IMG/VR virus record: IMGVR_UViG_2563366887_000003
Origin: a virus
Lineage: Duplodnaviria; Heunggongvirae; Uroviricota; Caudoviricetes
Length of the DNA: 22,398 bases
Direction: 5' to 3' (one strand)
The notes under the pieces are model-generated. The model saw only the letters and a program-made list of their open reading frames with translations. It did not search any database and had not been told where the DNA came from. Positions 1 through 16,903 of the stretch are shown here, piece by piece. A program made the translations under genes and the position numbers. Position 1 is the first letter of the stretch, and each line of letters starts with the position of its first letter.

Positions 1-1236
1 CTACGATAACCGCGCATTCAACATGGCTACCTGTTCGTCGTTCATGTCATCAATCCACATACCGTAAATTTCATACACCATCTGCGCAGTTTCATGCCCC
101 ATCTGGCTGGCTATAAACGCCGGGTTCGCTCCTGCCGTCAACAGCCAGCAGGCAAAAGTATGCCGCGTATGGTACGGATTACGGCGGCGAATACCAGCAC
201 GTTTTACTGCTGCATTCCATCTCGCACCCAAACTGCTTACCGAGTAATAAGGTTTCTGTTTTCCGTTACACACTCTGGGCATGAAAACAAAATGCAGTTT
301 TTGCTTTTCGGTTCTGCCGTACTCCCGATGATAAAAAGTGATTTCGCTTTTGCGATGATGCCCGGTCAGTTTGTATTGCTCCTTCAGTGCTTCAAGAGCA
401 GGCTGCAGTAGTGTTACCGTCCGGATCCCCGCATTTGTTTTTGGGGGACCGAACATATCCAGTATCGTCAGGTTTCTTCTGACATTCACAACTCCCTTCT
501 CGAAATCCACATCCTCCCACGCCAGAGCAGCCAGTTCCCCGTGACGAAGCCCGGAGTATACGGCAAATTTCCACAAGTTCTGGCTCTGTCCTTTTTCACT
601 TTCCATTAATGCATTGAATTCTGTTTTAGATAACGGGTCAGGCTTTATTCTGTTTCTCTGTAATTTCTTTACTCCTTCAAATGGTTTGGTTGATATAAAT
701 CCCGACTGATACGCAAAACGTAACAACGAACAGAGCAGGGCGATATAGTTATCAACTGTGCGCACGGTTCTTCCTTTTTTGTTGGATCTTGGATTATCCA
801 GGTAAAGCGTTTCTCCATGCAGCAGTTCATTCCGGTAGTTTAAGATATCGCTATAACGAATATGCGATATCGGAGTACTCTCACAAATTATTATCCTGAG
901 TGTTTTTAATTGTGATTTCGTTTTCTTCATTGTGTTTGTTGTTAACTCTGTTTCTTTAATTTTTGTCCAGATATCACAAAGCTCCCCGAACGTTTTTATG
1001 ACCCTCGTTGTCACCATTTTTGCCCCAGTGCTGGACTGGGGAAAACGTCTTAAATACTCAAACTCACCGGAATTGATTTCATGAACTATCAACGCTCTTA
1101 AATTCCCGGCTTTTTTAATGTTACTGTTAGTAACCTCCCAGCCTTTCAATGTTTCCCGACATCGTTTTCCTCGAAACATGAACCAGATGCGAATGTATTT
1201 ACCTCGAATCTCGACACCTGTTGGTAATTTAGACAT
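1..1236 (-). CDS. intR: Phage tyrosine integrase, Rac IntR-like (411 aa)
   Basis: Full-length minus-strand ORF; ATG at 1234-1236, stop at 1-3. N-terminal sequence MSKLPTGVEIRGKYIRIWFMFRGKRCRETLKGWEV and C-terminal HxxR...Y region match my recollection of Rac/lambdoid integrases. Sits directly beside an excisionase-like gene. Confidence 0.9.
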   Translation of the reverse strand: MSKLPTGVEIRGKYIRIWFMFRGKRCRETLKGWEVTNSNIKKAGNLRALIVHEINSGEFEYLRRFPQSSTGAKMVTTRVIKTFGELCDIWTKIKETELTTNTMKKTKSQLKTLRIIICESTPISHIRYSDILNYRNELLHGETLYLDNPRSNKKGRTVRTVDNYIALLCSLLRFAYQSGFISTKPFEGVKKLQRNRIKPDPLSKTEFNALMESEKGQSQNLWKFAVYSGLRHGELAALAWEDVDFEKGVVNVRRNLTILDMFGPPKTNAGIRTVTLLQPALEALKEQYKLTGHHRKSEITFYHREYGRTEKQKLHFVFMPRVCNGKQKPYYSVSSLGARWNAAVKRAGIRRRNPYHTRHTFACWLLTAGANPAFIASQMGHETAQMVYEIYGMWIDDMNDEQVAMLNARLS

Positions 1237-1237
1237 A

Positions 1238-1453
1238 TCATGAGTCTTTGATAAACTGATTTATCTTTGGATAGTTATACCAGATAATCCCTCGCTTACT
1301 GTCTGGCTTCCCTAAAGGAGATACTCGTTTGAAGTGGAAGCCTTCCACCCAACAGTTCTGGCGGTATGCTTCAATTTGTCTGGCCCCCAGACCAGTGCGA
1401 AGCATCAGGCCGTATTCAACCATCCACTCTTCATTAAAGATTACTTGTGCCAT
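1238..1453 (-). CDS. xisR: Excisionase-like small DNA-binding protein (71 aa, XisR/YdaQ-like)
   Basis: ATG at 1451-1453 preceded by GAGGTGA Shine-Dalgarno; stop TGA lies 1 nt from the int start codon. The 79-aa track ORF starts at an upstream TTG, so I trimmed it to the ATG. Position next to int is typical for xis. Confidence 0.7.
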
Positions 1454-1552
1454 CGCATCACCTCTGGCAGGCGCCAATGTTAGACTTAAATTGACGCCCG
1501 ATGTTGATTATTAATAATCAGCTATGAAGTTTTAATTTGAATACAATGCAAT

Positions 1553-1753
1553 TCACGAGGACTGAAGTTTCTCGCAATTAAAATTTATCAGTTTTACTTT
1601 CTGCTCTCTGGAAACGCCTGCTTCTTTTTTACCTGAGAGCATTTTTTCGCATTCTGATTTCGTTAGTTTAGATTTTGAATATCTTGTCCAGTTAGTAGGA
1701 GTGCCACCTTCCTTTTCAATAGTGGCGGTAATTTTATACATGAACACCTCCAT
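1553..1753 (-). CDS. ydaC: Small Rac protein YdaC-like (about 62-66 aa)
   Basis: ORF MEVFMYKITATIEKEGGTPTNW... matches my memory of Rac YdaC. Start is ambiguous between ATG at 1753 and ATG at 1741, which has a GGAGGTG Shine-Dalgarno just upstream. Confidence 0.55.
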   Translation of the reverse strand: MEVFMYKITATIEKEGGTPTNWTRYSKSKLTKSECEKMLSGKKEAGVSREQKVKLINFNCEKLQSS

Positions 1754-1778
1754 TATTATTTCCAGTGGTTCGTTTATT

Positions 1779-1928
1779 TCATCGTTCGAGTGCTTCTTTT
1801 TCACTTCCACCATAACCGGTTCGGGATTCGCATCCGTTACACTTCGCTCGGTAATATCCTGAAATGGCTTTCACCGTTACTGATGGACAACCACAAAATG
1901 GACATGGTTTAACATTGTCATATCTCAT
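1779..1928 (-). CDS. ralR: Restriction-alleviation protein RalR/Lar, truncated to 49 aa by a premature TGA
   Basis: Minus-strand translation MRYDNVKPCPFCGCPSVTVKAISGYYRAKCNGCESRTGYGGSEKEALER then TGA. The next 14 in-frame codons (NKRTTGNNNGGVHV, then TAA) reproduce the C-terminus of the 64-aa K-12 protein as I recall it, so codon 50 is TGA where TGG (Trp) is expected. Confidence 0.7.
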   Translation of the reverse strand: MRYDNVKPCPFCGCPSVTVKAISGYYRAKCNGCESRTGYGGSEKEALER

Positions 1929-1983
1929 AATTTTTCTCATAAAAATATTTCAAGTTGGCGGTGCATTACACCGCCAGGCTGAA

Positions 1984-2792
1984 TTATTCCTCTGAATTAT
2001 CGATTACACTGTATTCCCCGGTTAATACAGAGGAATCTGCAGGATCGATTGTCAGTGGTTCCTTTTCATCCATTGATACTGCACGCTGGATCTCAATTGA
2101 TACGGGCAGATATTTGAACAGGCGACGAATAGCCGTTTTCTTTGCCATTTCTTCCCAGTGAGTTACCCACGGCCCGTTATTACCAGCTTTACTCTGGCTG
2201 CGCACCAGCTCAATCTGTTTGCGCGTCATAACTTCAAACTGAGTACCTCCGTCTTTCAGTCTTGCGACAGCATAGACGTGGGTAACAGGGGCATCTTCGT
2301 TTTCTCCTGGGCGGTGTATTAACTTTTCATCAAGGCCAAATTCGAAATTAAACTCGTCACCTTCACGGACAACACGGGCTGACAGGCTGGCGATTTGACC
2401 TGAACGGCGAGCCAGATCAATCATGCCGCGATAGCCAATGATTAGCTGAACGTTTTTTTACCGCTCTTTTCGTTTTTATTACCAAAAGGCAGTAAATATG
2501 CATGACCGAGGGCGCTACCGGGCTCAAGTCCGAGCTGTGAACACTGTACGATTGCACTGACAAAACTCATAGTGTCACAGTTTCCTAACGCCGGAACTTT
2601 ACGAATTTCTGTGGTGGCGATACGGATCATACGTTCAGCCGTCATATGGCGTGGAAGAGCTGCTGCCAGTTGCTCTTTCATTGATGGCTGGTTAATAAAA
2701 CTAATCACGTCGTTATTTTTAATTGCTGCTGGTGCACGGTTTCCCTGAGTTTTTTGCAGATCGGCTTTTGCGATTGGTGGTTGCTTAGTCAT
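1984..2792 (-). pseudogene. recT: recT (RecT single-strand annealing recombinase) disrupted by a -1 frameshift in a homopolymer
   Basis: Two adjacent minus-strand ORFs (2442..2849 and 1984..2424) together give exactly the 269-aa RecT sequence if one A is added to the A7 run (plus-strand T7 at 2453-2459). The N-terminal fragment ends ...NEKSGKKTFS*; the downstream frame continues NVQLIIGYRGMIDLARR... Confidence 0.85.
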
Positions 2793-5385
2793 TTGCATAT
2801 TCCTTAGCCCAGCGGGGCAGTGATAACGTCTTAATAGCTGGCCATTCATCGGTATTGAGGCAGTCAGCCAGGGTTCGCAGATTGCGGTGATATTCCAGCT
2901 GACCTGCCAGTTTTGCTTCTTCGCCCATCATGAAAATTTCAACCGGATAACGTCCGCATTCAATAGTTGTGCTGGCAACCAGAAAAACGAAAGTTGGCTG
3001 CACTCCAAACTGTGCTTCATAACCGTCACTGTAGAATGCATCCTGAACGTGATAGCGGTAGTCGTAATAAGCGGTTTTGAATCGTTGAATATCCGCCGTA
3101 GTTTTCACGTCCATGATCCAGTGAAATTCAGGGATAATTTTGTCCGGACGGCACCGACACAAAATTGCTGTTTCAGGATCTTCCCAGTAAATTGATGATT
3201 CAGCGTGTCCGGCGCTTTCAACAAGCCATTGCCCCAGCGGCAAAGCCATAACGCTCTGATACATGAGTTCAATTTTCCGGCCTTCTTCGGCAGTGATAAC
3301 CGTTTTTCCTGTGCTTGCGCATTCCCTCAGAAACGCTTTCTCTTCTTCTTTTCCGGAGTTTGTCCGGCGGTTAAATTCAGGTGCTACGATAAAGCGGTTA
3401 CTGAATTCTTCCGGCTCAAGTACCCGGCAGTGGAAAGCGGTTCCTAAATCGAGCGTTTTTGTCTTTGTGGTGTCCACGGGGGCATTTTTACGCCACAAAT
3501 ACAGTGCCGGAGTATCAGCAATGTCATCGAGCTGAGACTTACTGACACCGGGACCCGCGTGGTAATTCTCATTCGAAATTCCGTAATAAATACCTGGCTC
3601 TATGTCTTCTACGATTACGGGATCTGCGACTTCGCCAGTTTCATCACTGCAATCGCGATGCGGATCGCTGCCAGCATTCTCATTGTGCGGATGTTCAGCG
3701 CCTTCCATTTCCTCCGGATCATTTTCCTTAGCTTCAACCTGACTCTCTTCATCGAATGTTTCCTGGTATGTTGCGTCGCCCATCACCGCACCACAGTCAG
3801 GGCAGTTATCCCCGCCAGTCTGGCCGCAGGCATTGCAGGCTATTTCCGGTTCCTGTTGCACTACTGGCTCAGGTTGATTCATATCCGGGCTGGTTTTTTC
3901 CGTTTCTGGCTGGTTCTGGTACACACAATCGCGAGTCTGGATCCCCTTTACCCATTTCGGATCGTTCGGGTCGCTAATTCCGTCAACAAATTCACCACGT
4001 GATGCAGCAAGCAATTTATCGGCATCGACAGGATTTTTTGATGGAATGTTTTTCCGGGCTTCATGGAGTTCTGCCCGCAGTTCCTGATATTTCGCATCAA
4101 CAGAATTTACCTGTGACTGAGCATCCAGCGGCTGCGTGTCCTGATGATGTTCAGTTGCGTCCGGTTCCATTGTTTCAGCCTCTCCCTGTTCAACTGCCGT
4201 TGTTCCAGATGGTTGCGGTTTTTCTTCATCATCCTGTTTTCCTTCTTCTGTTACTCGCTGCGGCATCGGGGCAGAGGAGCGACCGCAGGCAATATCCACG
4301 ATTTCCGGATCAGGGTTGGCATGATCGGTTTCAGTCAGTACTTTGTTCAGATATTCAGTGACGTGCGCGGGGATGACCTCGATCCCAATTGGTGCTTCTT
4401 TTACGGACGCAACCACGATGGCGCGGGAATAATCCAGCCCGCCAGGCATGGTGATGAATTTGTCGCGGAAAACAGAAAAGGGCGGTTTATTTTCAGCGAT
4501 AATTTCCTCAATGCGTTTAGCGTGTGCCGGATGAAGGTTATAGATGTCCAGATCCATTGAACGGGCCAGTACGCCAGTGGCTACGTCCCGCGCCAGTGAC
4601 GTCAGATCGTGTACGAAACCTTCGCCGCGATCGGTGAGGTTTCCGCCGCCAGCATTAGCACCGGAAGCCGTGCGAGTGATGTGTGAAACACGATTACCCT
4701 TCATCCACTCTTTTGTCAGCAGTCCTCGATCGGTGTAGTCAGCGTTCAGGTATGCTTCGAAAAAAGCAGTTATCAGTCCCAGGTTTGAATTACCAGGATT
4801 AGGGAAAACTTTGTCAGTGTCACGAACCAGTTTGTGGAGTTCGCGAATTTCCAGCGGGTCGAGCAGGCTGGTTTTGTGGGAAACAGCCAGGGCAGTAACA
4901 GCCGGTAGTTCTTCAGCCCGAGCAATGTGTAATGCCTGGAGTCCGTCGCGTGAAACGTGCGTTACCGGTTTTTCGCTGCCGTGTTGAGCAAGCCAACGAA
5001 TGGGCAGTTCCTGGCCAGAAATTGGGAGTAGCATATTCTCCTCAATCTCAGTCATGTCTTCGCCGTTGACGTTGGTATTGCCTTGATAGTGAGCGTTGTC
5101 TGGTGCTGCTCCCGGTTTTAGTTCCCATGTCATGGAGTCTTTGCTGAGTTGATAGCGTTCACTCCAGGTAAAATCGATCTCACCTTCAGCGGGCAGGTCA
5201 TTAACGACAGGAAAATTCGTGGCAACAGCTTTAAAATAGCTGCTCAGTTTTTTACCTGACTTAACGATCAGGTAGTCCAGAGTGGCACAGGTCGATTCAA
5301 AATCGTTGCTTGCCCACAGGACGACGTCAGGTTCACCGGATGATTTTTTCGCTTTCCGTAACAGGAAGAGTGGTTTTGTGCTCAT
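2785..5385 (-). CDS. recE: Exodeoxyribonuclease VIII RecE (866 aa), intact
   Basis: Uninterrupted 866-aa minus-strand ORF, the same length as K-12 RecE; recognisable acidic central region and C-terminal nuclease region. Its stop overlaps the recT start by 8 nt. Confidence 0.9.
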
Positions 5386-5457
5386 TGTTTTTTAACCTCA
5401 ACTCAGATTAAAATTCGTTTTGTTCAGTGAATGATCTTGCCGGATACACACTGTTCA

Positions 5458-5480
5458 TAGCCTGCGCCATACGCAGGCTA
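5458..5480 (+). other. Perfect 9-bp stem-loop in the racC-recE intergenic region
   Basis: tagcctgcg-ccata-cgcaggcta followed by tttctttc on the plus strand, i.e. oriented as a terminator for antisense (plus-strand) transcription. On the coding (minus) strand no U-run follows it. Confidence 0.3.
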
Positions 5481-5486
5481 TTTCTT

Positions 5487-5762
5487 TCAGATTTCACCTT
5501 TTAATTTCATTGCAATTAGAGTTGCCAGAAATTCGGCTTTTTTTTCTGCGGGCAGATTCTTTCCGATATGCACCAGGCACATTTTTTTGACACCTTCATC
5601 AAGTGTTTTTACGTTGCCTGATGGACCATCGATATCAACCACAGTGAATGGGGTTTCTTTATTTTCTGTTTTAATTACGTAGCCAATGCGCTTTCCTTCC
5701 AGATTCACCTCGTGAACAATGTCATCGGTAGTTACAACAGTGGCTTCATAATTGGTAATCAT
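5487..5762 (-). CDS. racC: RacC (91 aa)
   Basis: MITNYEATVVTTDDIVHEVNLEGKRIGYVIKTENKETPF... matches my recollection of Rac RacC. ATG at 5760-5762 is preceded by AAGGAG; the 107-aa track ORF has no Shine-Dalgarno at its upstream start. Confidence 0.8.
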   Translation of the reverse strand: MITNYEATVVTTDDIVHEVNLEGKRIGYVIKTENKETPFTVVDIDGPSGNVKTLDEGVKKMCLVHIGKNLPAEKKAEFLATLIAMKLKGEI

Positions 5763-5836
5763 GTTTTTCTCCTTAATTAAGGTTGAGCGAATACCTGCCA
5801 TTTCTGGCATAAATTCAGTTTCGAATAGTCAATTAA

Positions 5837-6007
5837 TTAAAGTTCATGTGCCATCTGGTCTTTTTCGGCACAAGCTTCACTGCAATATTTTCTCGGTTCG
5901 TCTTTTGATAAAATCCCGTGCATGAAGTGAAGCATTCTTTCAATAGCTTTGCTTTCTTCAACGTCTTTTTTGCAAAGGTGGTAAGCACATTTTATTTTCT
6001 TAGTCAT
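5837..6007 (-). CDS. ydaE: YdaE-like small Cys/His-rich protein (56 aa)
   Basis: Below the track's size cutoff; my translation is [56 protein letters not shown]. Its start codon overlaps the kilR stop (TGATGA). Confidence 0.75.
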   Translation of the reverse strand: MTKKIKCAYHLCKKDVEESKAIERMLHFMHGILSKDEPRKYCSEACAEKDQMAHEL

Positions 6008-6228
6008 CACCATGACTCCGCCTTTACAGGTAAACCATCACGACCGAGGAAGACTTTAATCATGCGGTCAGTAATGCATGTTTTTGTGGTCAGGTTACGA
6101 ATATATAGTTTTCGCTTTTTAATATTGTTTGCCGAGGCAATATATGTCCGGCCTTCATGAAGAACATAATCGCCAGGAGTCACACACTGACGTGGTATTT
6201 CATCAGTTCCGAAGTGATGTGCAATCAT
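6007..6228 (-). CDS. kilR: KilR, FtsZ-targeting cell-division inhibitor (73 aa)
   Basis: [46 protein letters not shown]... matches my recollection of Rac KilR. ATG at 6226-6228 has a GGAGA Shine-Dalgarno; the track ORF starts 4 codons upstream. Confidence 0.85.
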
Positions 6229-6669
6229 AATTATCTCCATTTTTACAAATGAACTTTGTTGATGCGGTGCCTGGTGCCTCCAGGTGACTGCAACCAGTTA
6301 ACAATTACAGTCGGCTTTCCCACCCAAACCAATAAGGACTAACATGACTTTTAACTGTGCCACGTGCGCTTAGCCGCATTCACCGCATCACAAAATTCAC
6401 TTTAAAAAGGGCGGACATCAGCCGAACTTCAAGAAAAAAACTGATGCCGCCAGGACTACACACAGCAATGTCGTTATTTACAACCGGAGGCGCACTCCCA
6501 CCATTTAAATTTAACAGACAAGACCGACTCTTTATGGATACCGGAAATGCGCCTTCGTGTTGTGCCCGGTTTTATTTCACCACCTCCGGGCTTCGGTGGT
6601 CTCGGCTATACCCCTACAGCGAGAGCTTGTGTTAACATTTCAATACCCTTACAGTTGAGAGTTATTGAT

Positions 6670-7158
6670 ATGTTGGATGTATTTACTCCATTGTTGAAAC
6701 TTTTTGCTAACGAGCCACTCGAAATACTTATGTATACGATTATCATTTTTGGTCTCACTCTCTGGCTGATACCGAAAGAGTTTACTGTCGCATTCAATGC
6801 TTATACTGAAATACCTTGGCTCTTTCAGATTATCGTTTTTGCCTTTTCTTTCGTGGTCGCCATTTCCTTCTCAAGATTGCGAGCACATATTCAAAAGCAT
6901 TATTCATTACTACCAGAGCAACGAGTATTGCTTCGTTTATCTGAGAAAGAAATCGCTGTATTTAAAGATTTCCTTAAAACAGGAAATCTTATTATCACTT
7001 CTCCTTGCCGTAACCCGGTTATGAAAAAATTAGAACGGAAGGGCATCATTCAACATCAGAGTGATAGCGCAAACTGTTCTTATTATCTCGTCACCGAAAA
7101 ATACTCCCATTTTATGAAGTTATTCTGGAACAGCAGGAGTAGACGTTTTAATCGTTAG
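6670..7158 (+). CDS. sieB: Superinfection exclusion protein SieB (162 aa)
   Basis: MLDVFTPLLKLFANEPLEILMYTIIIFGLTLWLIPKEF... with hydrophobic N-terminal segments; matches my recollection of Rac SieB. The track ORF begins upstream at a non-ATG position. Confidence 0.85.
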   Translation: MLDVFTPLLKLFANEPLEILMYTIIIFGLTLWLIPKEFTVAFNAYTEIPWLFQIIVFAFSFVVAISFSRLRAHIQKHYSLLPEQRVLLRLSEKEIAVFKDFLKTGNLIITSPCRNPVMKKLERKGIIQHQSDSANCSYYLVTEKYSHFMKLFWNSRSRRFNR

Positions 7159-7310
7159 CTTACTGTGTGCTTCTCCAACCATCGGCGCGCACCAGTTTCG
7201 GTTTTAAATGTTTTGCTTTTGGTATACGTCATGGCAGTGAACGTTCCATCCTGGTTGGGGAACACGCCGCACACCAGGGATTCGTTGTTGCCGAGGTCGA
7301 TTTTTTGCAT
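7155..7310 (-). CDS. ydaF: YdaF-like small protein (51 aa)
   Basis: Below the track cutoff; my translation is MQKIDLGNNESLVCGVFPNQDGTFTAMTYTKSKTFKTETGARRWLEKHTVS. Overlaps sieB tail-to-tail by 4 nt. Confidence 0.7.
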   Translation of the reverse strand: MQKIDLGNNESLVCGVFPNQDGTFTAMTYTKSKTFKTETGARRWLEKHTVS

Positions 7311-7320
7311 TTTGCGAATC

Positions 7321-7455
7321 TCACATCTTGTTGCTGTGTATAGCGACTTCTGCCTGCCAGAGATCCCAGTCGTTGCTGCGTAAAGCCTGCACAGCCTGGT
7401 TGTAAGTGATACCGCAACAATCCATCAAATACTGAACTACTTCGTAATGCACCAT
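7321..7455 (-). CDS. ydaG: YdaG-like small protein (44 aa)
   Basis: Below the track cutoff; my translation is MVHYEVVQYLMDCCGITYNQAVQALRSNDWDLWQAEVAIHSNKM. Confidence 0.7.
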   Translation of the reverse strand: MVHYEVVQYLMDCCGITYNQAVQALRSNDWDLWQAEVAIHSNKM

Positions 7456-7504
7456 CTTATCTCTCCCCTTAACGCCGGGTGACCTAGTTTTACCATCGCT
7501 GCAT

Positions 7505-7648
7505 ATGGCAAACCGCGAACTGCGTCGGGCGAAAAATCATGTCCAGAAGTGGGAGCGAGTCTGCGCCGCGCTGCGGGAGCTGAACAAGCACCGGGATATT
7601 GTCCGACAGATTGTCGATTCCTCCAGTCGTATTGTGTCGGAAAAGTGA
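7505..7648 (+). CDS. Small charged ORF (47 aa), possibly the N-terminal part of a gene split by an in-frame TGA
   Basis: ATG at 7505; translation MANRELRRAKNHVQKWERVCAALRELNKHRDIVRQIVDSSSRIVSEK; no obvious Shine-Dalgarno. It is in the same frame as the 7664 ORF, separated only by TGA (7646-7648) and five codons. Confidence 0.25.
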   Translation: MANRELRRAKNHVQKWERVCAALRELNKHRDIVRQIVDSSSRIVSEK

Positions 7649-7663
7649 TTGCCGGAGGCGCTT

Positions 7664-8080
7664 ATGGCAAAAGTTTTTACACAGGAAGAGCGTGAAAAAA
7701 TTAAGGAGCAGGTTGTTGAGTTGGTACGCCAGAGTGGGCGCGAGACGTTAAGGCAACTGGAGGCCAAGACAGGTGCGACAAGATATCTGATGAGCATTCT
7801 TGCCAGAGAGTTGGTTGCCAGTGGCGATGTATACAACTCTGGCTATGGGTTATTCCCGTCTGAACAGGCTCGTAAGGATTGGAAAAACGCCCGCAAAAAA
7901 CTATCCAGGGCAAAGGTGAAAAAAACGGTTGTGGTTGATCCTGACCTTATCTGGTCATTACCAGACGGAGAAATACGCCGCTATGACAGGCGTCAGAACA
8001 TAATCTGTCGCGAGTGCCGGAAGAGTGAAGTTATGAAACGTGTACTGGCATTTTATCAAGGAAATCTTCGGTATTTATAG
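7664..8080 (+). CDS. Hypothetical protein (138 aa), basic, possibly DNA-binding
   Basis: ATG at 7664 with GGAGG 5 nt upstream (the track ORF starts at TTG 7649). GC content and codon usage look host-like. I cannot assign a family. Confidence 0.55.
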   Translation: MAKVFTQEEREKIKEQVVELVRQSGRETLRQLEAKTGATRYLMSILARELVASGDVYNSGYGLFPSEQARKDWKNARKKLSRAKVKKTVVVDPDLIWSLPDGEIRRYDRRQNIICRECRKSEVMKRVLAFYQGNLRYL

Positions 8081-8218
8081 ACGTTACTAGATCAAAGAGC
8101 ATTAGTTCATATGTAAATTGACATTTTTCTGGCACAGGGGAGAGCTAGCGTGGTTGTCCGCTTTGTGCCAATAGCGGACATTGCTGGCTCATGGTATGTT
8201 AGTTTAAGGAGGCAGGTT

Positions 8219-9241
8219 ATGCCCTGTATTTCGCTGTGGTATAATAGTTGCGCAATTGATACAAGGGAGCGTTACATCGTGAAAATTGTTTTCGAGGTTA
8301 ATGGAAAGAAAGTTCCACTAAAATCTTTAAAATACATAAGCAAAAAAGATCAACTCGAAGTAATGAAAAACTGGTTCTTTGAAAACTTTGAAGATCCGGC
8401 AAATGCTTGTCCGTATGAAAGTAGAGAAGGTGGCTATGCTTACATATATGGCGGGCCGTATGATGCGAGCGAAGAACTACAATCCATCTTCGGTCAATAT
8501 GTTAAATCTGAGTATATTGAGGAATTAGTAGATGAATTACAAACACAATGTTTTGACTGGTCTGGAAACTCAAATAATATAGATGATTGGTACGATGATG
8601 ATATCTACGACGCTGTAACGTCTTCCGGTAATCCGTATTTAAAATTCATTGATAATATCGATAAAATAAAAAAACTTGCAAAAGATAAAACTGAACAACA
8701 GCAAAAAAACCACTTGCTTAGTTTGCTCTACACGAATGTTATTACAGCTTTGGAAACGCTTTATGTTGAGCTATTCATTAATTCTATAGAGAAAGATGAT
8801 GTCTACATAGCCAATTGTATAGAAAAAGGTAAGACTGAATTTAAAGTAAGCAAAGATATTGCTGCGTTGCCTTTCAAGGGTGAACCCATCGAGAAAATTA
8901 GGGGAGAGCTAATCAGGTCAATCAAGGAACACTTGATCAGTGCAAGCTGGCATAGCACTAAAAAGGTAATCGACCGCTATGAAGCTACATTCGATATAAA
9001 AGTACAAAAAGACTGTCCGATAGAAGCTATTGAATTGGCAACCCTCAATCGAAATCACTTAGTGCATCGTGGTGGAAAGGATAAAGAAGGGAACCTCGTA
9101 GTGATTACAGACCAGGATCTTGAAACGCTGATTGAAAATGCATCGAACCTGGCAATTATGCTCTACAACAGTTTAAATGTAGCAACGAATAAAACCACCA
9201 TTTTGCAACCAGATGACAAACCGTTCATTCATGAATTTTAA
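8219..9241 (+). CDS. Hypothetical protein A of an AT-rich two-gene operon (341 aa from ATG 8219, or 320 aa from GTG 8279); C-terminal region carries an R-x4-H motif (RNHLVH) reminiscent of HEPN domains
   Basis: Long ORF with a sharp shift to AT-rich composition from about 8280. ATG 8219 has a perfect TAAGGAGG 6 nt upstream. Alternative GTG 8279 has AAGGGAG upstream and follows an extended -10 (TGgTATAAT at 8237-8245). No family recognised by eye. Confidence 0.7.
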   Translation: MPCISLWYNSCAIDTRERYIVKIVFEVNGKKVPLKSLKYISKKDQLEVMKNWFFENFEDPANACPYESREGGYAYIYGGPYDASEELQSIFGQYVKSEYIEELVDELQTQCFDWSGNSNNIDDWYDDDIYDAVTSSGNPYLKFIDNIDKIKKLAKDKTEQQQKNHLLSLLYTNVITALETLYVELFINSIEKDDVYIANCIEKGKTEFKVSKDIAALPFKGEPIEKIRGELIRSIKEHLISASWHSTKKVIDRYEATFDIKVQKDCPIEAIELATLNRNHLVHRGGKDKEGNLVVITDQDLETLIENASNLAIMLYNSLNVATNKTTILQPDDKPFIHEF

Positions 9242-9256
9242 TAGCGCAGGTCATAC

Positions 9257-10258
9257 ATGGATATTCGCACACGAAAGACAAAATTTTTAGAGTCGTTAGA
9301 TTCAACTGAAGTGATACGCAAAGCAGTAAGTCTCGCTATAGATTGCATTATTGATAATCATAATAGTAATGAAGATACCCCCTTAGTTATTACCAGCTAT
9401 GATGATCTCTGTAGAATCCAGGTGCTAAATTATGTACAGGAGTTTTGCGAAGCTGCATTCCCTGATATGGATGAATATTACTTTAGTCCTAACATACTTC
9501 GCATCAACGGCAAGACTAGTGAAGAAGCTTGTATTAACTTAATTAAACTCTTAAGAAGTACAAAAGGCATGCTATTCTGGTCCGATGCCCCATCGTGGTT
9601 CGCTAGCCTCCCCGACGGATTATTCCATGTTGTTAACATTGATCAAAAAATCGTTACTCGCGGCCTTAATAAGAAAAACTCTAAGCCGACAATAATCAAT
9701 AAAGATTACAGTGTAGATACACTACTATCAGAGCTATTTTTGAATGGCGCACACATGGAGCAACCCAACGTACACAACGTTTCTGAGGGAAACATGAAGT
9801 TCTATGATGAATGCCATGCTGGATTAATCAGACCAATACCCGCTCCAATAGGCGCGTCATACGATGAAGAGATCACAATTAATTCTCCAGATTGGCAAAA
9901 GCTCGCGTGTGTAGCTTTACGCCGCTATCAGTCGAAGGAATGTCATGACGGAATGCAATGGGATACAACCGATCATGGTTGGACTGATGTAATCGCGTAT
10001 CCATTCGTCGAAGAAATACAATCAATGGATAATAGTGGTTATCGACAATGTTTAGTTGGGCTGGTCACAATAAACAATTCAAATGCAAATTCTCCGTACC
10101 TATCTACCGTTTGGATACATCCATTTTATCGCAGGAGAGGGTTATTAAGTAAGTTATGGCCAAAATTACAAGAGTTATATGGAAGTAACTTCGAAATTGA
10201 GCGACCTAATGAAAATATGAAAGCATTTCTGAAAAGTGCGAAACACGCAGATTACTAA
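9257..10258 (+). CDS. Hypothetical protein B of the two-gene operon (333 aa)
   Basis: ATG 15 nt after the stop of protein A, same strand, same AT-rich composition. C-terminus (WIHPFYRRRGLLSKLW...NENMKAFLKSA) loosely resembles GNAT motifs A and B but the tail is too short for a canonical GNAT fold. Confidence 0.75.
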   Translation: MDIRTRKTKFLESLDSTEVIRKAVSLAIDCIIDNHNSNEDTPLVITSYDDLCRIQVLNYVQEFCEAAFPDMDEYYFSPNILRINGKTSEEACINLIKLLRSTKGMLFWSDAPSWFASLPDGLFHVVNIDQKIVTRGLNKKNSKPTIINKDYSVDTLLSELFLNGAHMEQPNVHNVSEGNMKFYDECHAGLIRPIPAPIGASYDEEITINSPDWQKLACVALRRYQSKECHDGMQWDTTDHGWTDVIAYPFVEEIQSMDNSGYRQCLVGLVTINNSNANSPYLSTVWIHPFYRRRGLLSKLWPKLQELYGSNFEIERPNENMKAFLKSAKHADY

Positions 10259-10812
10259 TTTATGAATCAGTCTGTGGAGTTAGGGTTGGTGTGAACAAGT
10301 AGGGTAAGAGCCTCAACGTGATGCTATGCCGACCTGCTCCCTGAGAATTCACACAGAAGGCTGCTAGCAATGTCTGCAGATCGCTCAAAGCGGACTAAAA
10401 TGTTGGCTTGTTTCTGACTTAGAGCATTTAAGGAAGTGCTGGTGGTGACTGGTTGTTGTGTTCCATTTCTACAGAATAAAATCACAGAAACTATACCCAA
10501 TAGTTGTATTGAATCACTGACGAGACAGCCTCATATTTATCAGGACTGGTGTGCGTCTAATACAGGGGGTTGTCGTGCTGGTTCTCAAATGTGCGCTGGC
10601 TATTGCGGCTGTAATGGCAATTTATTGTCTTGCTGTTGTTCTTATGGAGCGGCTTTCTGATTGATTACATACTGGCTAGAAAAAAGGTGTTACCTTGGTT
10701 TATCTTTGTCCGGCAAGGTGCGCTCATTAATCTTAAGTAAATTTATTGCTCAAGTATTCAGATTACTTCTTATGGTTGAAGTCTCCTGTCAATGTAGAAC
10801 CAATATATTTAC

Positions 10813-10850
10813 AAAAATGAGACCCGTCGGGGATAGCCCTGCCGGGTCTG
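10813..10850 (-). terminator. Rho-independent terminator downstream of the YeaR-like gene
   Basis: On the minus strand: GC-rich hairpin agacccg...cgggtct followed by cattttt, about 30 nt after the stop at 10879. Confidence 0.5.
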
Positions 10851-10878
10851 ACTGTTAAAGCATTTTTAATATGATCAT

Positions 10879-11217
10879 CTATTTTTTGGTGCTATAGACT
10901 TTTTCGCCCGAAAAGTCTGGAGCGACCCAAAAGTTAATATTAAACTGAGCATCATCGCTTAGTTCAACACGGTGCCAGTATTGTGGTGGGCTTGTTGCAA
11001 AAGCGCCAGCATTAATGACTACTTTTATCTCCGGTTCAGTAGCATTCTCATCAGTAAAACCATAATATGTTACAGTGCCTTCCATTACGCACAACTGCCC
11101 AAAAACACCTGCTGCTGTATTATGATGTGTTAATAACGCTGAAGGTACGTTCTCTTTTGTGAAGAACGGAGTTGAGCGTTTGATTACCCAATCTTTAGGA
11201 ATTCTCTTGTGTGTCAT
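10879..11217 (-). CDS. YeaR-like DUF1971 (cupin-like, TehB-N-domain-like) protein, 112 aa
   Basis: ATG at 11215-11217 with GGAGGAGGTGG Shine-Dalgarno. Sequence pattern RSTPFF...LCVMEGTVTYYGF...EP...AGAFA..PP..WH...FNINFWVAP parallels E. coli YeaR as I remember it. The track ORF starts 8 codons upstream, inside the palindrome. Confidence 0.7.
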   Translation of the reverse strand: MTHKRIPKDWVIKRSTPFFTKENVPSALLTHHNTAAGVFGQLCVMEGTVTYYGFTDENATEPEIKVVINAGAFATSPPQYWHRVELSDDAQFNINFWVAPDFSGEKVYSTKK

Positions 11218-11225
11218 AACCACCT

Positions 11226-11272
11226 CCTCCAAAAGATGCATTAAAAATGCATCTTTTGGAGGGTTATGTCAA
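11226..11272 (-). promoter_or_regulatory. Perfect 17-bp inverted repeat (3-nt spacer) resembling an NsrR operator, with a consensus -35 TTGACA immediately upstream
   Basis: cctccaaaagatgcatt-aaa-aatgcatcttttggagg at 11226-11262. Its core AAGATGCATTAAAAATGCATCTT matches the NsrR box (AAGATGCATTT-N-AAATGCATCTT, as I recall it) at 22 of 23 positions. On the minus strand TTGACA (plus 11267-11272) lies just upstream; the repeat ends 9 nt before the start codon. Confidence 0.6.
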
Positions 11273-12030
11273 GCTGTTATGAAACACATAATTGATATGT
11301 TGATTAGAGGAGAAGATAGAATAAATATGGTTGTTTTTCGTATAACTATTTGTTTTACTTTTAGTTTATGCATTCTGTGTGTTAGGAATAAGTTATTAAA
11401 GTTTAATCAAAAAATCTCGATGTAGTCCACATAGATTACTGTTACTGAACCTTATTGTGTGTATTAGTTGTGTTCTGAAATTTCAGCTTAATTATTTATG
11501 ATGTATTTTTTAACGATAAATATTTCCCCAGGATACCTTTACTGTGTATATAAATAAATTATATACGCATAAATAATGTAAAGGCGTCCTTTTAGATATA
11601 TCTTATCAAATGTTAATGACTTGAGTGGGAAATATGATTCCAGCAACTTATCATGTGGCTACTTTATAAAAATAATGCCCATATAAAACAACAAGCGAAA
11701 AGGATTACGGATAAAAAAGGAGCGAGATGTGCGAACTTGTTATTTTCCATGTTTAACCACCTTAAATAATTGATGATGACGGGATGATTGCATCTGTAAT
11801 GCTTTTATTGAAATGTTATGATAAAAAAGAACTTTTGCATAACATTAAAATGTAATTTATCTAATCGTTTTTAATAATAAGTGTCGTATTTCTATCCTTG
11901 TACCAGCTATTTGATATGTAGTGTTTGTTCATGCTATGTGGGGCTTTACACCATAGCCAGTTTATTTATACTTTATTCGTCAGCCTGAACAACTGGCATC
12001 TGCTGCGCTGCGCCATCGAGAGATTGAGAA

Positions 12031-12630
12031 ATGGCGCATATACAACTGGTCAAACAAACCTCTTCTGGTTTACTTCTCCCGGCGACGCCGGAGAGTTGCG
12101 ATTTTCTGCATCAAATCAAAATAGGTGAGTGGATACACGCAGACTTTAAGCGTGTGCGTAACTACGCATTCCACAAGCGTTTTTTCAAACTCCTGCAACT
12201 GGGATTCGATTACTGGACTCCGGTCGGTGGGGCGATCACGCCTCGCGAACGAGAACTGCTGTCTGGTTTCGTTGATTACCTGTGCGAATCAGTTGGTCGG
12301 GAACACACGCCAGCCCTGAGTGATGCCGCAGAGCAATACCTTAACACCGTTGCGACTCGTAGAACCCGGGATACGGCGTTGCTAAAGTCGTTTGAGGCTT
12401 TCCGCGAGTGGGTAACCATTCAGGCCGGATTTTACACCGAGCATATTTATCCGGACGGTAGCCGTGGGCGTCGGGCAAAATCCATCGCTTTTGCGAATAT
12501 GGACGAAGTCGAGTTTCAGCAGGTTTATAAATCTGTACTGAATGTGCTGTGGAACTGGATTCTGTTCCGTAAATTCTCCTCTCAGGAGGAAGTTGAAAAT
12601 GTGGCCGCACAACTACTGGAGTTTGCGTAA
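12031..12630 (+). CDS. Lambdoid nin-region protein, DUF1367-like (199 aa)
   Basis: ATG at 12031; the stop overlaps the next start (TAATG). Placement directly before the YbcO-like and Q-like genes is typical for nin regions. The family assignment is from memory and not certain. Confidence 0.65.
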   Translation: MAHIQLVKQTSSGLLLPATPESCDFLHQIKIGEWIHADFKRVRNYAFHKRFFKLLQLGFDYWTPVGGAITPRERELLSGFVDYLCESVGREHTPALSDAAEQYLNTVATRRTRDTALLKSFEAFREWVTIQAGFYTEHIYPDGSRGRRAKSIAFANMDEVEFQQVYKSVLNVLWNWILFRKFSSQEEVENVAAQLLEFA

Positions 12631-12920
12631 TGGTGAATTTACGTAAAGCGGCTAAAGGCCAGATGTGCCAGATCAGAATCCCTGGCTACTGCAATCACAA
12701 TCCCGAAACCTCTGTGCTGGCGCATTACAGGCTGGCGGGGACGTGCGGAACAGCGACAAAACCACATGATATGCAGGCGGCGATAGCCTGTAGCTCATGC
12801 CACGATCTAATCGACGGGCGGGTAAAAACCAGCGATTACACCAAAGAAGAATTGCGCCTGATGCATGCTGAAGGGGTTTTTCGCACACAAGAAATCTGGA
12901 GAAAGAAAGGTCATTTATGA
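12630..12920 (+). CDS. YbcO-like DUF1364 protein (96 aa, Cys/His-rich putative nuclease)
   Basis: MVNLRKAAKGQMCQIRIPGYCNHNPETSVLAHYRLAG..CSSCHDLIDGR contains a Cys/His cluster. Same length and position (just before Q) as DLP12 YbcO. Confidence 0.7.
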   Translation: MVNLRKAAKGQMCQIRIPGYCNHNPETSVLAHYRLAGTCGTATKPHDMQAAIACSSCHDLIDGRVKTSDYTKEELRLMHAEGVFRTQEIWRKKGHL

Positions 12921-13459
12921 TTTACCCAACGAATACAGGAAAAAGCGGAGAACACCTTCGCCTCACCACGCTGGAAAGTGTCTGGATTCAGGGAAAACTA
13001 CGTATGTGGGGGCGCTGGTCGTATATTGGCGGTGGCAGGTCAGGGAATATGTTCAATCAGTTGTTGGCATACAAAAAACTGACGAAAACAGCCATTAATG
13101 AAGCCCTGCGCAGAATGAAAAAAGCGGGAATAGAGAAAGCTGAGCTGGAAGCGTTTTTGCGAGAGATGATCAACGGCAAGCAAAAGAGCTGGCTGGCGCA
13201 TTGTACTGATGCAGAGGCGTTATGTATTGATCGAGTCATAAGTGAGGTGCTGGCAGAGCATCCAGGATTGATTTGCATTCTCCGGCAACGCTATGAAGGG
13301 CGGGGGATGACTAAGCGCAAAATGGCTGAATTGCTAAATGATGCACACCCAGAGTGGTGTTTTAGCACATGCGAAAAACGGATTGCTAATTGGTTAGCTG
13401 TTGCTGAGTATGCCCTATATATTCCCATGCGTGAATCATTTGCTGAGAAAATGGCTTGA
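12917..13459 (+). CDS. Late-gene antiterminator Q-like protein (180 aa)
   Basis: ATGA start/stop overlap with the preceding gene. Last gene before terminators and the lysis cassette, which is the canonical Q position. Family called from position and general resemblance only. Confidence 0.55.
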   Translation: MIYPTNTGKSGEHLRLTTLESVWIQGKLRMWGRWSYIGGGRSGNMFNQLLAYKKLTKTAINEALRRMKKAGIEKAELEAFLREMINGKQKSWLAHCTDAEALCIDRVISEVLAEHPGLICILRQRYEGRGMTKRKMAELLNDAHPEWCFSTCEKRIANWLAVAEYALYIPMRESFAEKMA

Positions 13460-13540
13460 TTTCTTACGTATAAACTGCTTCAATTTTGCTATGCTTCGCA
13501 AAGCTGTATCGCGAGGCGGATTGCAGACATGGACATCGTA

Positions 13541-13566
13541 AAAAAACCGCTTAATGCGGTTTTTTT
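13541..13566. terminator. Bidirectional rho-independent terminator after the Q-like gene
   Basis: aaaaaaccgc-ttaat-gcggttttttt: a short GC stem flanked by an A6 run and a T7 run. Confidence 0.6.
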
Positions 13567-13886
13567 ACGTCAGGAAAGCAGGGGAGAATGCTGCTAGTTG
13601 GGCAACTGGTCTTTCTGCTCCAAATTATAACAGAGACCAGTTATAGTTTCGGTGCTGTGTTTTTTTTACAATATTGTGATAACACATTGCTGGCGGGAGT
13701 TTTGATATTTCTTGGCAGGGGCTGATGATGCGTTATCCTGATGTCGTCAACTCATATAAAATGAGATGAGAGATCATTGCAGGGTGGTTTGTAATTCGCT
13801 GTTTAGCGGGACAATATGTTGTCTGATACAAGACACCCGACGCCTCAGATTACTATAATAAAGACGAAGCATCCTTTGTATTGACC

Positions 13887-13912
13887 AACCGCCTGTTTAG
13901 GCGGTTCTTTTT
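13887..13912 (+). terminator. Rho-independent terminator (tR'-like candidate)
   Basis: aaccgcc-tgttta-ggcggtt followed by cttttt. Confidence 0.55.
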
Positions 13913-14444
13913 GGGCTGGTTTATTGTATGCCAAATGATTATTAAAAAGGTTGTGTTAATAACAAAATCCGAAATAATATGCCTGCATATTTTTATCTTG
14001 CTTATATTCTGCATATTGTGCATAGCAGGCTCATCCCTGCAATCAAAACTGTATGATGAGTATTTTTTGTTTTCCTTTTTTCCAGTCATCTGATGATGAC
14101 CTGCTTCTTTTTAATCCGGATCGACATCAGTTTTTTAAGATAATTCCTGCGAGTTATATGCATAAATGCCACAAACTCCGCATTTTATGTGGTTGGGAGT
14201 TGCCGGGCGCGCAGTGAGTTTGCTAAGAAAACTCCTGCATGGTGAATCCCCCTGTGCGGTGGGGTGATACCATTAACCTTTTCTGTCGCCGACAGGTATC
14301 ACGAACATTTTGTTCACCGGGAGGCACCCGGCACCATGCACTTCAATAGATTCTCTCCACATTATGGATATTCTTTCAGAATATCCCACGCAGACTTTGT
14401 GTAAATGTTAACAAATGTGCGTTTTATTTGATCTGATTCGCTGT

Positions 14445-14474
14445 TTGAGCGTCCAAAACAACGGTATATATAAT
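14445..14474 (+). promoter_or_regulatory. Candidate sigma70 promoter for the first TolA-like lipoprotein gene
   Basis: TTGAGC (14445-14450), 18-nt spacer, TATAAT (14469-14474), about 30 nt upstream of the start codon. Confidence 0.4.
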
Positions 14475-14503
14475 CCTTTACTATATGACATATGTGAGGA
14501 AAA

Positions 14504-14932
14504 ATGGGTTTTCGTAGCGCATCAATTCTTACGTTGATTATTAGTGGGATTATTATCGGGTGCACTGATGCTGTATCGACAAATTATCATGACCGTACAT
14601 CATATTACTCCGATAAAGCAATAGAGACACAGTATGTGAGTTCATCTGAACGTACTTCTGATGTTAGTGAGGATATCCGTCTGTATGCCCATCAAATCAA
14701 GAGCGCCATCGAAAAACAGTTCGGGGATGCGAGTAAGTATTCAGGAAAAGAGTGTACACTGAGAATGCATATGGCCCCGAATGGCCTTCTACTGGAGGTT
14801 AAAAGAGAAAGTGGAGACCTCGATTTATGTCGTGAAGCGATGAATGCGATAAAGAATGCTGATATACCTGCCCCCCCTTCGCCGGAAGTATATAAAGTAT
14901 TTCAAAATGGGGTGCTGGATTTTAAACCCTGA
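14504..14932 (+). CDS. Lipoprotein with a C-terminal TolA-domain-III-like domain (142 aa)
   Basis: Signal peptide with lipobox IIGC (MGFRSASILTLIISGIIIGC). C-terminal 85 aa, YAHQIKSAIEKQFGDASKYSGKECTLRMHMAPNGLLLEVKRESGDLDLCREAMNAIKNADIPAPPSPEVYKVFQNGVLDFKP, closely parallels the TolA C-terminus as I recall it (YAGQIKSAIESKFYDASSYAGKTCTLRIKLAPDGMLLDIKPEGGDPALCQAALAAAKLAKIPKPPSQAVYEVFKNAPLDFKP). Confidence 0.8.
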   Translation: MGFRSASILTLIISGIIIGCTDAVSTNYHDRTSYYSDKAIETQYVSSSERTSDVSEDIRLYAHQIKSAIEKQFGDASKYSGKECTLRMHMAPNGLLLEVKRESGDLDLCREAMNAIKNADIPAPPSPEVYKVFQNGVLDFKP

Positions 14933-15082
14933 TATTTATTGTTTTGTAATAAACGGTTTCGGCTTAGGTTTGTTCTGACACAGCTACGGCACTGAGCTAA
15001 ATTTAGCGGATAGTCAGCTCTGAGCCAGTGGCGGACGTAACAACTACTATTGCTGAGATTTTAATGGATTGAGGAGCAAGAA

Positions 15083-15478
15083 GTGGGATTAAAGAAAATC
15101 GTTATGTTGACTTTTTGGGTCGGTTTTGTTGCGGGATGCACACCTTTACACCCTTCAGATTGCCACAAAACTACTGCTACAGGTAGTTGCAGTTCAGGAC
15201 GCTGGGATGATCAGGATGAATGGGGGGCGCAAGCGCGGGGAATCAGAGCTGCAATTAATGCCAAACTTGATGAGCCGCATAACTGGAAAGGGAAAAAATG
15301 CAGGTTGCATATGGAATTCTCTCAGGATGGCACGGCGTTAAAAATATCTACCAGTAACGGTGATAAAGCCTATTGCGAAGCGATAAAGTCCGCAGCTCAT
15401 AAAGCCAAATTTCCGGCCTTCAACAATCCGGAAGTCTACAGAGATTTTCAGAAATCTGGCTTTGACATGCGAGGTTAG
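15083..15478 (+). CDS. Second, more divergent TolA-domain-III-like lipoprotein (131 aa)
   Basis: GTG start at 15083 with GAGGAG 6 nt upstream. Lipobox VAGC (MGLKKIVMLTFWVGFVAGC). C-terminus KKCRLHMEFSQDGTALKISTSNGDKAYCEAIKSAAHKAKFPAFNNPEVYRDFQKSGFDMRG keeps the two Cys residues and the PEVY motif of the first copy. Confidence 0.7.
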   Translation: MGLKKIVMLTFWVGFVAGCTPLHPSDCHKTTATGSCSSGRWDDQDEWGAQARGIRAAINAKLDEPHNWKGKKCRLHMEFSQDGTALKISTSNGDKAYCEAIKSAAHKAKFPAFNNPEVYRDFQKSGFDMRG

Positions 15479-15729
15479 CTCTTCAATTACTATATCTCAT
15501 TCATAGCAAACTGACAGATTTGATGATGTTCTATATACGAAACCTGTGATGTCAAGTCTGAGCTAATACAAATAAACATAATATCAGAGAAATACATTTT
15601 ATTAGCTCGCTACGGCGAGCTTTTTATATTGCATCGTCTCCAGCATATATATCAATTAAGGCTCTGATTGATGTGTCTGAAAGCCTACACATAATAACTA
15701 TGCCATCCGTTCCGTGCGGAGGTGAGGCT

Positions 15730-15945
15730 ATGAAATCCATGGACAAAATTTCAACAGGCATTGCCTACGGCACCTCCGCAGGCAGTGCTGGCTACTGGTT
15801 TTTACAGTTGCTCGATAGAGTAACTCCGTCACAGTGGGCTGCAATCGGTGTGCTGGGTAGTCTGGTATTTGGCCTGCTGACGTACCTGACAAACCTTTAT
15901 TTCAAGATTAAAGAAGATAAGCGCAAGGCTGCGAGAGGTGAATAA
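15730..15945 (+). CDS. Phage 21-type pinholin (S21-like, 71 aa) with dual-start motif
   Basis: [71 protein letters not shown]. Two in-frame ATGs (15730 and 15739; M-K-S-M) as in S21 antiholin/holin. GGAGGTGAGG Shine-Dalgarno upstream; TAATG overlap with the endolysin. Confidence 0.85.
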
Positions 15946-16442
15946 TGCCTCCATCATTACGAAAAGTCGTTGCTGCTGCTATTGGTGGCGGAGCAATTGC
16001 TATAGCATCAGTGTTAATCACTGGCCCAAGTGGTAACGATGGTCTGGAAGGTGTCAGCTACATACCATACAAAGATATTGTTGGTGTATGGACTGTATGT
16101 CACGGGCATACAGGAAAAGACATCATGCTCGGTAAAACGTATACCAAAGCAGAATGCAAAACACTCTTGAATAAAGACCTTGCCACTGTCGCCAGACAAA
16201 TTAACCCGTACATCAAAGTCGATATACCGGAAACAACGCGCGGCGCTCTTTACTCATTCGTTTACAACGTGGGTGCTGGCAATTTCAGAACATCGACGCT
16301 TCTTCGCAAAATAAACCAGGGCGATATCAAAGGCGCATGTGATCAGCTACGTCGCTGGACATATGCTGGCGGTAAGCAATGGAAAGGTCTCATGACTCGT
16401 CGTGAGATTGAGCGTGAAATCTGTTTGTGGGGTCAGCAATGA
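15945..16442 (+). CDS. SAR endolysin (R21-like lysozyme, 165 aa)
   Basis: N-terminal Gly/Ala-rich weakly hydrophobic signal-anchor-release segment ([20 protein letters not shown]) followed by a lysozyme-like domain; overlaps the holin stop and the Rz start. Confidence 0.85.
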
Positions 16443-16903
16443 ACAGAGTAACCGCGATTATCTCCGCTCTGGTTATCTGCATCATCGTCTGCCTGTCATG
16501 GGCTGTTAATCATTACCGTGATAACGCCATTACCTACAAAGCCCAGCGCGACAAAAATGCCAGAGAACTGAAGCTGGCGAACGCGGCAATTACTGACATG
16601 CAGATGCGTCAGCGTGATGTTGCTGCGCTCGATGCAAAATACACGAAGGAGTTAGCTGATGCGAAAGCTGAAAATGATGCTCTGCGTGATGATGTTGCCG
16701 CTGGTCGTCGTCGGTTGCACATCAAAGCAGTCTGTCAGTCAGTGCGTGAAGCCACCACCGCCTCCGGCGTGGATAATGCAGCCTCCCCCCGACTGGCAGA
16801 CACCGCTGAACGGGATTATTTCACCCTCCGGGAACGACTGGTAATGATGCAGGCCCAACTTGAAGGTGCTCAGCAATACATAACCGAGCAGTGTTTAAAG
16901 TAA
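16439..16903 (+). CDS. Rz-like i-spanin (154 aa)
   Basis: ATG at 16439 overlaps the endolysin stop (ATGA). N-terminal TM segment followed by a coiled-coil-like Ala/Arg/Asp-rich periplasmic domain. The track ORF starts at GTG 16427. Confidence 0.8.
16659..16844 (+). CDS. rzoR: Rz1-like o-spanin lipoprotein (61 aa), embedded in the +1 frame of Rz
   Basis: [24 protein letters not shown]...[15 protein letters not shown]: lipobox VVGC and a proline-rich tail; matches my recollection of Rac RzoR. Confidence 0.8.

Follow-up and report, generated by a model that had tools for sequence, protein, structure and literature searches.

When the toxin gene of a type I toxin-antitoxin pair stops short at codon 50, does its product still act as a toxin, and what has become of the antitoxin? 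The question is raised by ralR in a viral sequence of 22,398 nucleotides (IMG/VR record IMGVR_UViG_2563366887_000003), which is referred to here, over its whole length, as the window. The answer that we favor, at a probability of roughly 0.75, is that the window carries a derived nonsense allele (W50opal) of ralR (also named lar), a case of toxin-first decay in which toxicity would be lost or strongly reduced. The RalR/RalA locus of Rac is known, the nonsense allele is catalogued but undiscussed, and full-text searches of the literature for a truncated ralR found nothing relevant.

The first genes of the window, all of them on the minus strand, form the left arm of a Rac-type prophage. The preliminary description had correctly named the gene as ralR; it is the ralR of the Rac prophage, with intR, xisR, rcbA, recT, and recE as its neighbors:

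1..1236, minus strand: intR.
1238..1453, minus strand: xisR.
1553..1741, minus strand: rcbA (ydaC), encoding a 62-aa DUF1187 protein (Pfam PF06688, 132 bits, profile positions 1-61 of 61; PGAP).
1734..1928, minus strand: full reading of ralR, including its tail (coordinates the same as those of K-12 b1348).
About 1984..2793, minus strand: recT, split into two open reading frames (2442..2849 and 1984..2424).
2785..5385, minus strand: recE.

The split in recT falls at a homopolymer run (2453..2459, minus strand) that has 7 A in the window and 8 A in the closest genomes, E2865 and FORC_081 (the K-12 sequence there is AAAAAGAA). The reading frame changes near codon 134; in near-identical genomes, recT is intact according to PGAP. 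The A7 run may reflect either a true frameshift or a sequencing error in the homopolymer. Further along, at about 7480/7481, the window is without 2.4 kb of the closest complete genome, FORC_081 (7983..10381 of locus L008), corresponding to the prophage immunity and replication region (a racR-like repressor, a ydaS-like HTH gene, ydaT, and partial ydaU), and a search of 5,426 complete genomes turned up the contiguous junction in only 1 (strain S3, 98.3% identity). Repression of ydaS and ydaT reportedly makes RacR essential in K-12; in the window, the repressor and both toxins are gone together. A match to the STnc100 sRNA family (RF02076; 86.6 bits, gathering score 47) lies in the late prophage region (14207..14393, plus strand). 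At the right end of the FORC_081 region that matches window positions of about 21170..22398, a partial terminase small-subunit gene abuts a partial sitB, with sitA intact, and it seems that the sit iron/manganese transporter locus truncates the late prophage region there; for several genomes that are otherwise near-identical, the match is confined to window positions 1..21171.

Minus-strand translation of window positions 1734 to 1928 yields MRYDNVKPCPFCGCPSVTVKAISGYYRAKCNGCESRTGYGGSEKEALER, a stop, NKRTTGNNNGGVHV, and a second stop, so that the gene falls into the following parts:

1779..1928, minus strand: shortened reading frame of ralR, 49 sense codons closed by an opal stop (translation, codon table, and list of open reading frames).
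1782..1784, minus strand: codon 49, CGA, which marks the haplotype background of the stop (alignments and haplotype counts).
1779..1781, minus strand: premature stop TGA at codon 50 (alignment with K-12 and five other E. coli alleles).
1734..1778, minus strand: orphaned 3' part of ralR, 14 codons (NKRTTGNNNGGVHV) plus TAA, identical to K-12.

The reference ralR of K-12 MG1655 (b1348) encodes 64 aa and has coordinates in its own locus equal to those of the window gene. Its codon 50 is TGG (Trp), where the window has TGA (1781..1779); the altered base is window position 1779, a G-to-A change in the third base of the codon. Codon 49 also differs (CGA in the window, AGA in K-12), both codons specify Arg, and, as this difference is synonymous, the change at codon 50 is therefore the sole coding difference from K-12 ralR. 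Residues 1-49 equal those of K-12 RalR, and the 14 tail codons with their TAA are nucleotide-identical in the alignment. The nucleotide alignment thus bears out what had been proposed from the window alone: a single G-to-A change from TGG to TGA, 14 following codons that encode the rest of the 64-aa protein, and a Cys-rich N terminus of 49 residues that is kept, its four-Cys part included. An alternative, 53-aa reading of the truncated gene would start at an in-frame ATG four codons upstream (1940). Just upstream of that ATG, between the recT-ralR hairpin (GGCGGTG..CACCGCC) and ralR, a T-run (about 1941..1945) is one T shorter than in K-12, and the shorter run is common to CM2010-0578/1 and E2865, both carriers of the TGA.

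Comparison with relatives shows that the TGA at codon 50 is derived and that RalR is not natively short. TGG is kept in five other aligned E. coli ralR alleles, including diverged ones beside a different RecT-family gene, and the Salmonella and Citrobacter orthologues likewise keep the Trp (RWNKR or RWNRR). Word-indexed protein searching recovered close relatives only, and the family became visible just by exhaustive search: HMMER with a 64-aa homologue returned 1,690 family representatives at an E value of ≤0.001. Trp was kept in 144 of the 144 listed representatives (50% identity), always with at least 4 residues after it, and none of those 144 was 52 aa or shorter or ended before the Trp. 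A natively 49-aa RalR, which the preliminary description had named as the finding that would speak against a truncation, was accordingly found among none of them, and K-12 has 64 aa with the same downstream codons. In 56 aligned single-domain proteins of the Lar family, the invariant columns were C9, P10, F11, C12, C30, C33, W50, and N51, with R53 conserved in at least 90%. Since W50 is invariant in the family, the stop replaces one of eight invariant Lar-family residues.

The 49-aa product retains the zinc ribbon, C-P-F-C ... C-x-x-C (C9, P10, F11, C12, C30, and C33), and is without the W-N-x-R motif that ends the domain helix: the stop stands in place of the invariant Trp, and the N-K-R after it is encoded but untranslated, as is the whole orphaned 3' part, barring read-through of the UGA. 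AlphaFold modelling of a 64-aa homologue with 92% identity (mean pLDDT, 77) gives a beta-hairpin (17-22 and 25-30), one helix (43-57), and a tail that is disordered; the stop would split this sole predicted helix in half. A search of the PDB found no Lar-family structure, and the profile and Foldseek matches were weak, generic zinc ribbons (eIF2-beta, Elf1/ELOF1, and RPC11). Profile scores for the 49-aa product remain above threshold, at 39 bits for PF14354 (Lar_restr_allev; cut-off, 28.6), barely above at 40.3 bits for TIGR03655 (anti_R_Lar; cut-off, 39.6), and 126.9 bits for NCBIfam NF007260 (the RalR equivalog; cut-off, 113). Coverage of PF14354, whose profile ends at 58, falls from 2-58 in the 64-aa form (53.5 bits) to 2-52 in the 49-aa form, and the NF007260 match spans positions 1-49 only of the 64 that make up the full length. 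PGAP annotates the same 150-nt coding sequence (WP_001443846.1) as ralR in E2865, CM2010-0578/1, and FORC_081, and its PGAP/RefSeq name is [quoted passage not shown]; because the NF007260 score exceeds the 113-bit cut-off, the RalR name is kept and no pseudogene flag is raised.

What the missing part is likely to cost the toxin can be judged from published mutants. Error-prone PCR yielded mutants in which changes at amino acids 14, 37, 39, 49, 51, and 52 reduced toxicity, and a purified position-52 mutant, named both K52Q and K52G in the paper, did not cleave DNA (Guo et al. 2014, PMC4041452). The window product lacks W50 and residues 51 and 52. Because W50 and N51 are family-invariant and point mutants at 51 and 52 had reduced toxicity, loss or strong reduction of RalR toxin activity is the most likely effect of the stop. 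The suggestion in the preliminary description that truncation may detoxify RalR thus has indirect backing, from this invariance and from the point mutants. The course of events that we propose would have begun when one G-to-A transition, in a haplotype with CGA at codon 49 (Arg49), turned the family-invariant Trp50 codon into UGA. The resulting 49-residue fragment keeps the four-Cys zinc ribbon; gone from it are the W-N-x-R motif, residues 51 and 52, and the distal half of the predicted C-terminal helix. In a chromosomal type I pair, the toxin would thereby be the half that decays first, with ralA and its 16-nt target unchanged, and the allele is now present on Rac-like prophages of about 6% of the complete E. 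coli genomes, major EHEC serotypes included. We regard this as ordinary gene decay in a prophage toxin. As a counterpoint, the fragment keeps its zinc ribbon entire, scores above the Pfam, TIGR03655, and NF007260 cut-offs, and may have some activity.

The antitoxin side of the locus consists of the following features:

1557..1735, plus strand: ralA sRNA, 179 nt, antisense to rcbA (Rfam RF02694, 225.1 bits, gathering score 170, model positions 1-179 of 179).
1619..1634, plus strand: RalA pairing segment, 16 nt, TGCTTCTTTTTTACCT (matching the sequence of Guo et al. 2014).
1791..1806, minus strand: RalA target in the ralR mRNA, 16 nt, AAGTGAAAAAGAAGCA, codons 41-46 (K-12-identical; repeat from Guo et al. 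2014).

The sRNA, which could not be located by eye when the window was first described, is thus present and intact by both the Rfam match and 100% identity to K-12, where ncRNA b4714 lies at the same coordinates. In the literature, RalA represses toxin translation in an Hfq-dependent manner, and 16-nt repeat sequences have been given for RalA-ralR pairing (Guo et al. 2014, PMC4041452). An unconstrained RNAduplex calculation with RalA and the ralR mRNA paired the two over their whole length, which is not meaningful, and the published 16-nt site was used instead. The target is intact, with an 11-nt perfect core at 1791..1801, and ends 10 nt upstream of the premature stop. An adjacent RalA gene on the opposite strand and 16 nt of complementarity within the ralR coding region, the marks of the RalR/RalA type I system, are both found in the window. 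A simple terminator/promoter scan returned no terminator-like site and one promoter-like site, on the plus strand (hexamers, 1491..1518), ending some 40 nt before position 1557, the mapped 5' end of RalA.

The survival of ralA beside a broken toxin gene can be explained by rcbA, which is intact in the window and whose coding strand is the complement of ralA, ralA being the exact complement of most of it. As ralA is the complement of an intact rcbA, selection on rcbA alone would preserve it, with no toxin-antitoxin function needed, and the antitoxin has probably survived because it is the antisense strand of rcbA. The two reading frames also meet directly, the rcbA start overlapping the original ralR stop over the last 8 nt of the ralR 3' part (in K-12, this overlap of stop and start is ATGTATAA). 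The rcbA Shine-Dalgarno sequence, GGAGG (1747..1751), lies inside the orphaned 3' part, 5 nt upstream of the rcbA ATG. Ribosomes would be released at the early stop 37 nt upstream of that ATG, and because rcbA has its own GGAGG, little polarity on it is expected.

Two further observations concern rcbA. In the window, and likewise in 5 of the 6 other E. coli alleles aligned, a TGA (window positions 1553..1555, minus strand) closes the gene at 62 aa; K-12 has AGA in that place and reads on to 69 aa, so that its RcbA, the reference form, looks like the product of a stop-loss. In some E. coli strains, RalR and RcbA are fused into one protein (P0012 and P0015). The P0012 fusion reads GGSEKEA followed by GVSREQKVKLINF, with its junction exactly at the 16-nt repeat common to ralR and rcbA, and the P0015 fusion is joined at another short EKE(G) homology; from these junctions, the RalA-pairing repeat appears also to be a deletion hotspot, removing the toxin C terminus together with part of ralA.

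To place the allele among its relatives, codons 49-50 were scored by exact-haplotype searches of 5,426 complete E. coli genomes with 32-mer and 66-mer probes:

CGA-TGA (window): 310 of 5,426 genomes (about 6%).
CGA-TGG: 126 of 5,426 genomes.
AGA-TGA: 0 of 5,426 genomes (exact 32-mer search).
AGA-TGG (K-12; exact 66-mer): 1,122 of 5,426 genomes.

In total, about 1,875 of these genomes match the ralR probe of 66 nt. Exact matches to the window probe over its full 66 nt likewise number 310 genomes, the carriers thus being without variation over 66 nt, tail included; this sample is biased, as STEC genomes are over-sequenced. Carriers include O157:H7 (86-24, ATCC 43890, and ATCC 43894), O55:H7, O111:H8, O26, O103, and many non-STEC isolates; the exact 49-aa protein was found on at least 1,000 contigs of a large protein collection, and the truncated allele is present in three GenBank phage records (vB_EcoS-666R9, -673R7, and -613R10). 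W50opal is a common natural allele, neither a private mutation nor a sequencing error. The stop noticed in the preliminary description is therefore real, and it is not peculiar to the window, the allele being frequent (310/5,426) and annotated in RefSeq as an ordinary RalR coding sequence. Independent recurrence on the K-12 (AGA) background was considered and rejected, the exact 32-mer search having found 0 genomes with the stop on that background among the 5,426. Because AGA-TGA is absent and CGA-TGG is present, we infer, from haplotypes and not from a tree, that the stop most likely arose once, on the CGA background. The high frequency of the allele and the invariant 66 nt in its 310 carriers fit recent spread and fit a selectively maintained form equally well. 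Many STEC genomes have two ralR places; strain 10153 (NZ_AP027191.1; 2056081 and 2678648) carries the truncated TGA copy and, elsewhere on the chromosome, a diverged full-length copy (WP_042853000.1). Loss of the toxin at one ralR locus need not leave the cell without RalR.

An alternative to a dead toxin is one that is attenuated and still made. Of the stop codons, UGA is the leakiest in E. coli, and a tRNA-Trp that read through it would restore the wild-type protein exactly; low-rate decoding of the UGA by this near-cognate tRNA might then supply a trickle of authentic 64-aa RalR under RalA control. The tail codons are intact, the 66 nt around the stop are identical in the 310 carriers, ralA and its target site are unbroken, and the window stop is a UGA followed by A, a relatively weak terminator context in E. 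coli, all of which such read-through would accommodate. We nevertheless consider it unlikely, since the 52 nt that begin with the UGA have no advantage in folding over shuffled sequence (z 0.29) and offer no recoding signal, since basal read-through typically stays well below a few per cent, and since recent origin and the overlap with the rcbA ribosome-binding site and start codon account more simply for the intact tail. Recoding by selenocysteine (SECIS-type) is ruled out by the same fold, no stable hairpin following the UGA. That W50opal as an allele is a tuned-down toxin, with a small, RalA-controllable amount of 64-aa RalR made by read-through, strikes us as slightly less probable again; if true, it would explain why tail, ralA, and pairing site are kept in 310 genomes across EHEC and other lineages.

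A second alternative is separation of function, the 49-aa fragment being without DNase toxicity yet useful and harmless through, for example, the restriction alleviation/modification enhancement ascribed to Lar. King and Murray reportedly proposed a restriction-alleviation role in 1995. The fragment does pass the two family profiles (PF14354, 39 bits versus 28.6; TIGR03655, 40.3 bits versus 39.6), and the allele is frequent and occurs in the phage-deposited records vB_EcoS-666R9, -673R7, and -613R10. However, W50 and N51 are invariant in the whole Lar family, and a function shared across the family would probably need both; moreover, RalR was without restriction-inhibiting activity in the work of Guo et al. 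(2014, PMC4041452). This reading is accordingly improbable. The role as a restriction-alleviation factor that the preliminary description gave to RalR is thus disputed between the 1995 proposal and the 2014 result.

The two weakest explanations can be set aside briefly. An artefact or one-off mutation of the source strain, for which the 1-nt homopolymer difference in recT of the same window (A7 versus A8), itself possibly a sequencing error, might be cited, has next to no chance of being correct, because the ralR stop is a substitution and not a homopolymer indel and because identical 32-mers and 66-mers recur in 310 independent complete genomes, with at least 1,000 contigs and the three phage records in addition, and sequencing error is thereby ruled out. 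Equally negligible is the prospect that K-12 is the odd one out, its TGG being a stop-loss extension of a native 49-aa RalR: K-12 does have a stop-loss in the neighboring rcbA (TGA to AGA, lengthening 62 aa to 69 aa), and the majority form of that gene is the short one, but at ralR the TGG haplotypes amount to at least 1,248 genomes against 310 with TGA, and the divergent alleles, the Salmonella and Citrobacter orthologues, and the 144 representatives all have Trp followed by conserved residues, so that family conservation and haplotype counts together rule it out.

With decay of the toxin as the preferred reading, the allele is of small importance, in three respects. RefSeq and UniRef carry the 49-aa WP_001443846.1 as a normal RalR toxin, and surveys of toxin-antitoxin systems in E. 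coli, with O157:H7, O26, O103, and O111 strains among them, will count a probably inactive toxin as functional. The allele is also a natural truncation with which to ask which part of RalR carries DNase activity and toxicity or the disputed restriction alleviation, and it would add one more case in which the toxin half of a chromosomal toxin-antitoxin pair decays first.

Set beside the Rac pair of K-12, RalR (Lar, b1348, 64 aa) and RalA (b4714) (Guo et al. 2014, PMC4041452), the window has the same locus, neighbors, and coordinates, with identical residues 1-49, ralA, 16-nt pairing sites, and 14 tail codons (as DNA); it differs in the TGA at codon 50, with the product stopping at Arg49, in CGA rather than AGA at codon 49, in a T-run before the ATG at 1940 that is one T shorter, and in an RcbA of 62 aa instead of 69 aa. 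With the full-length RalR on a CGA background (WP_021500490.1; E. coli MEI003 and O157:H7 7.1_Anguil), it shares the CGA at codon 49 and the tail; unlike the window, that allele has TGG at codon 50 and a 64-aa product, and in MEI003 and 7.1_Anguil, the two examples read, the 5' part of ralR and the upstream sequence have diverged and the neighboring recombinase is a different RecT-family protein. The CGA-TGG haplotype (126 genomes) may plausibly be the immediate ancestor of the truncated allele. Compared with the Lar family (PF14354 and TIGR03655), the window product has the CPFC...CxxC zinc ribbon and scores above both profile cut-offs but is without the invariant W-N-x-R end of the domain. 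Its closest counterparts in kind are type I toxins of the chromosome that have decayed, for example the hok-like loci that Guo et al. (2014, PMC4041452) cite as inactive in E. coli K-12: in both, a prophage or chromosomal toxin gene is inactivated by mutation and the locus persists, whereas in the window one nonsense codon accounts for the damage, the antitoxin RNA is unaltered, and it doubles as the antisense strand of an intact rcbA.
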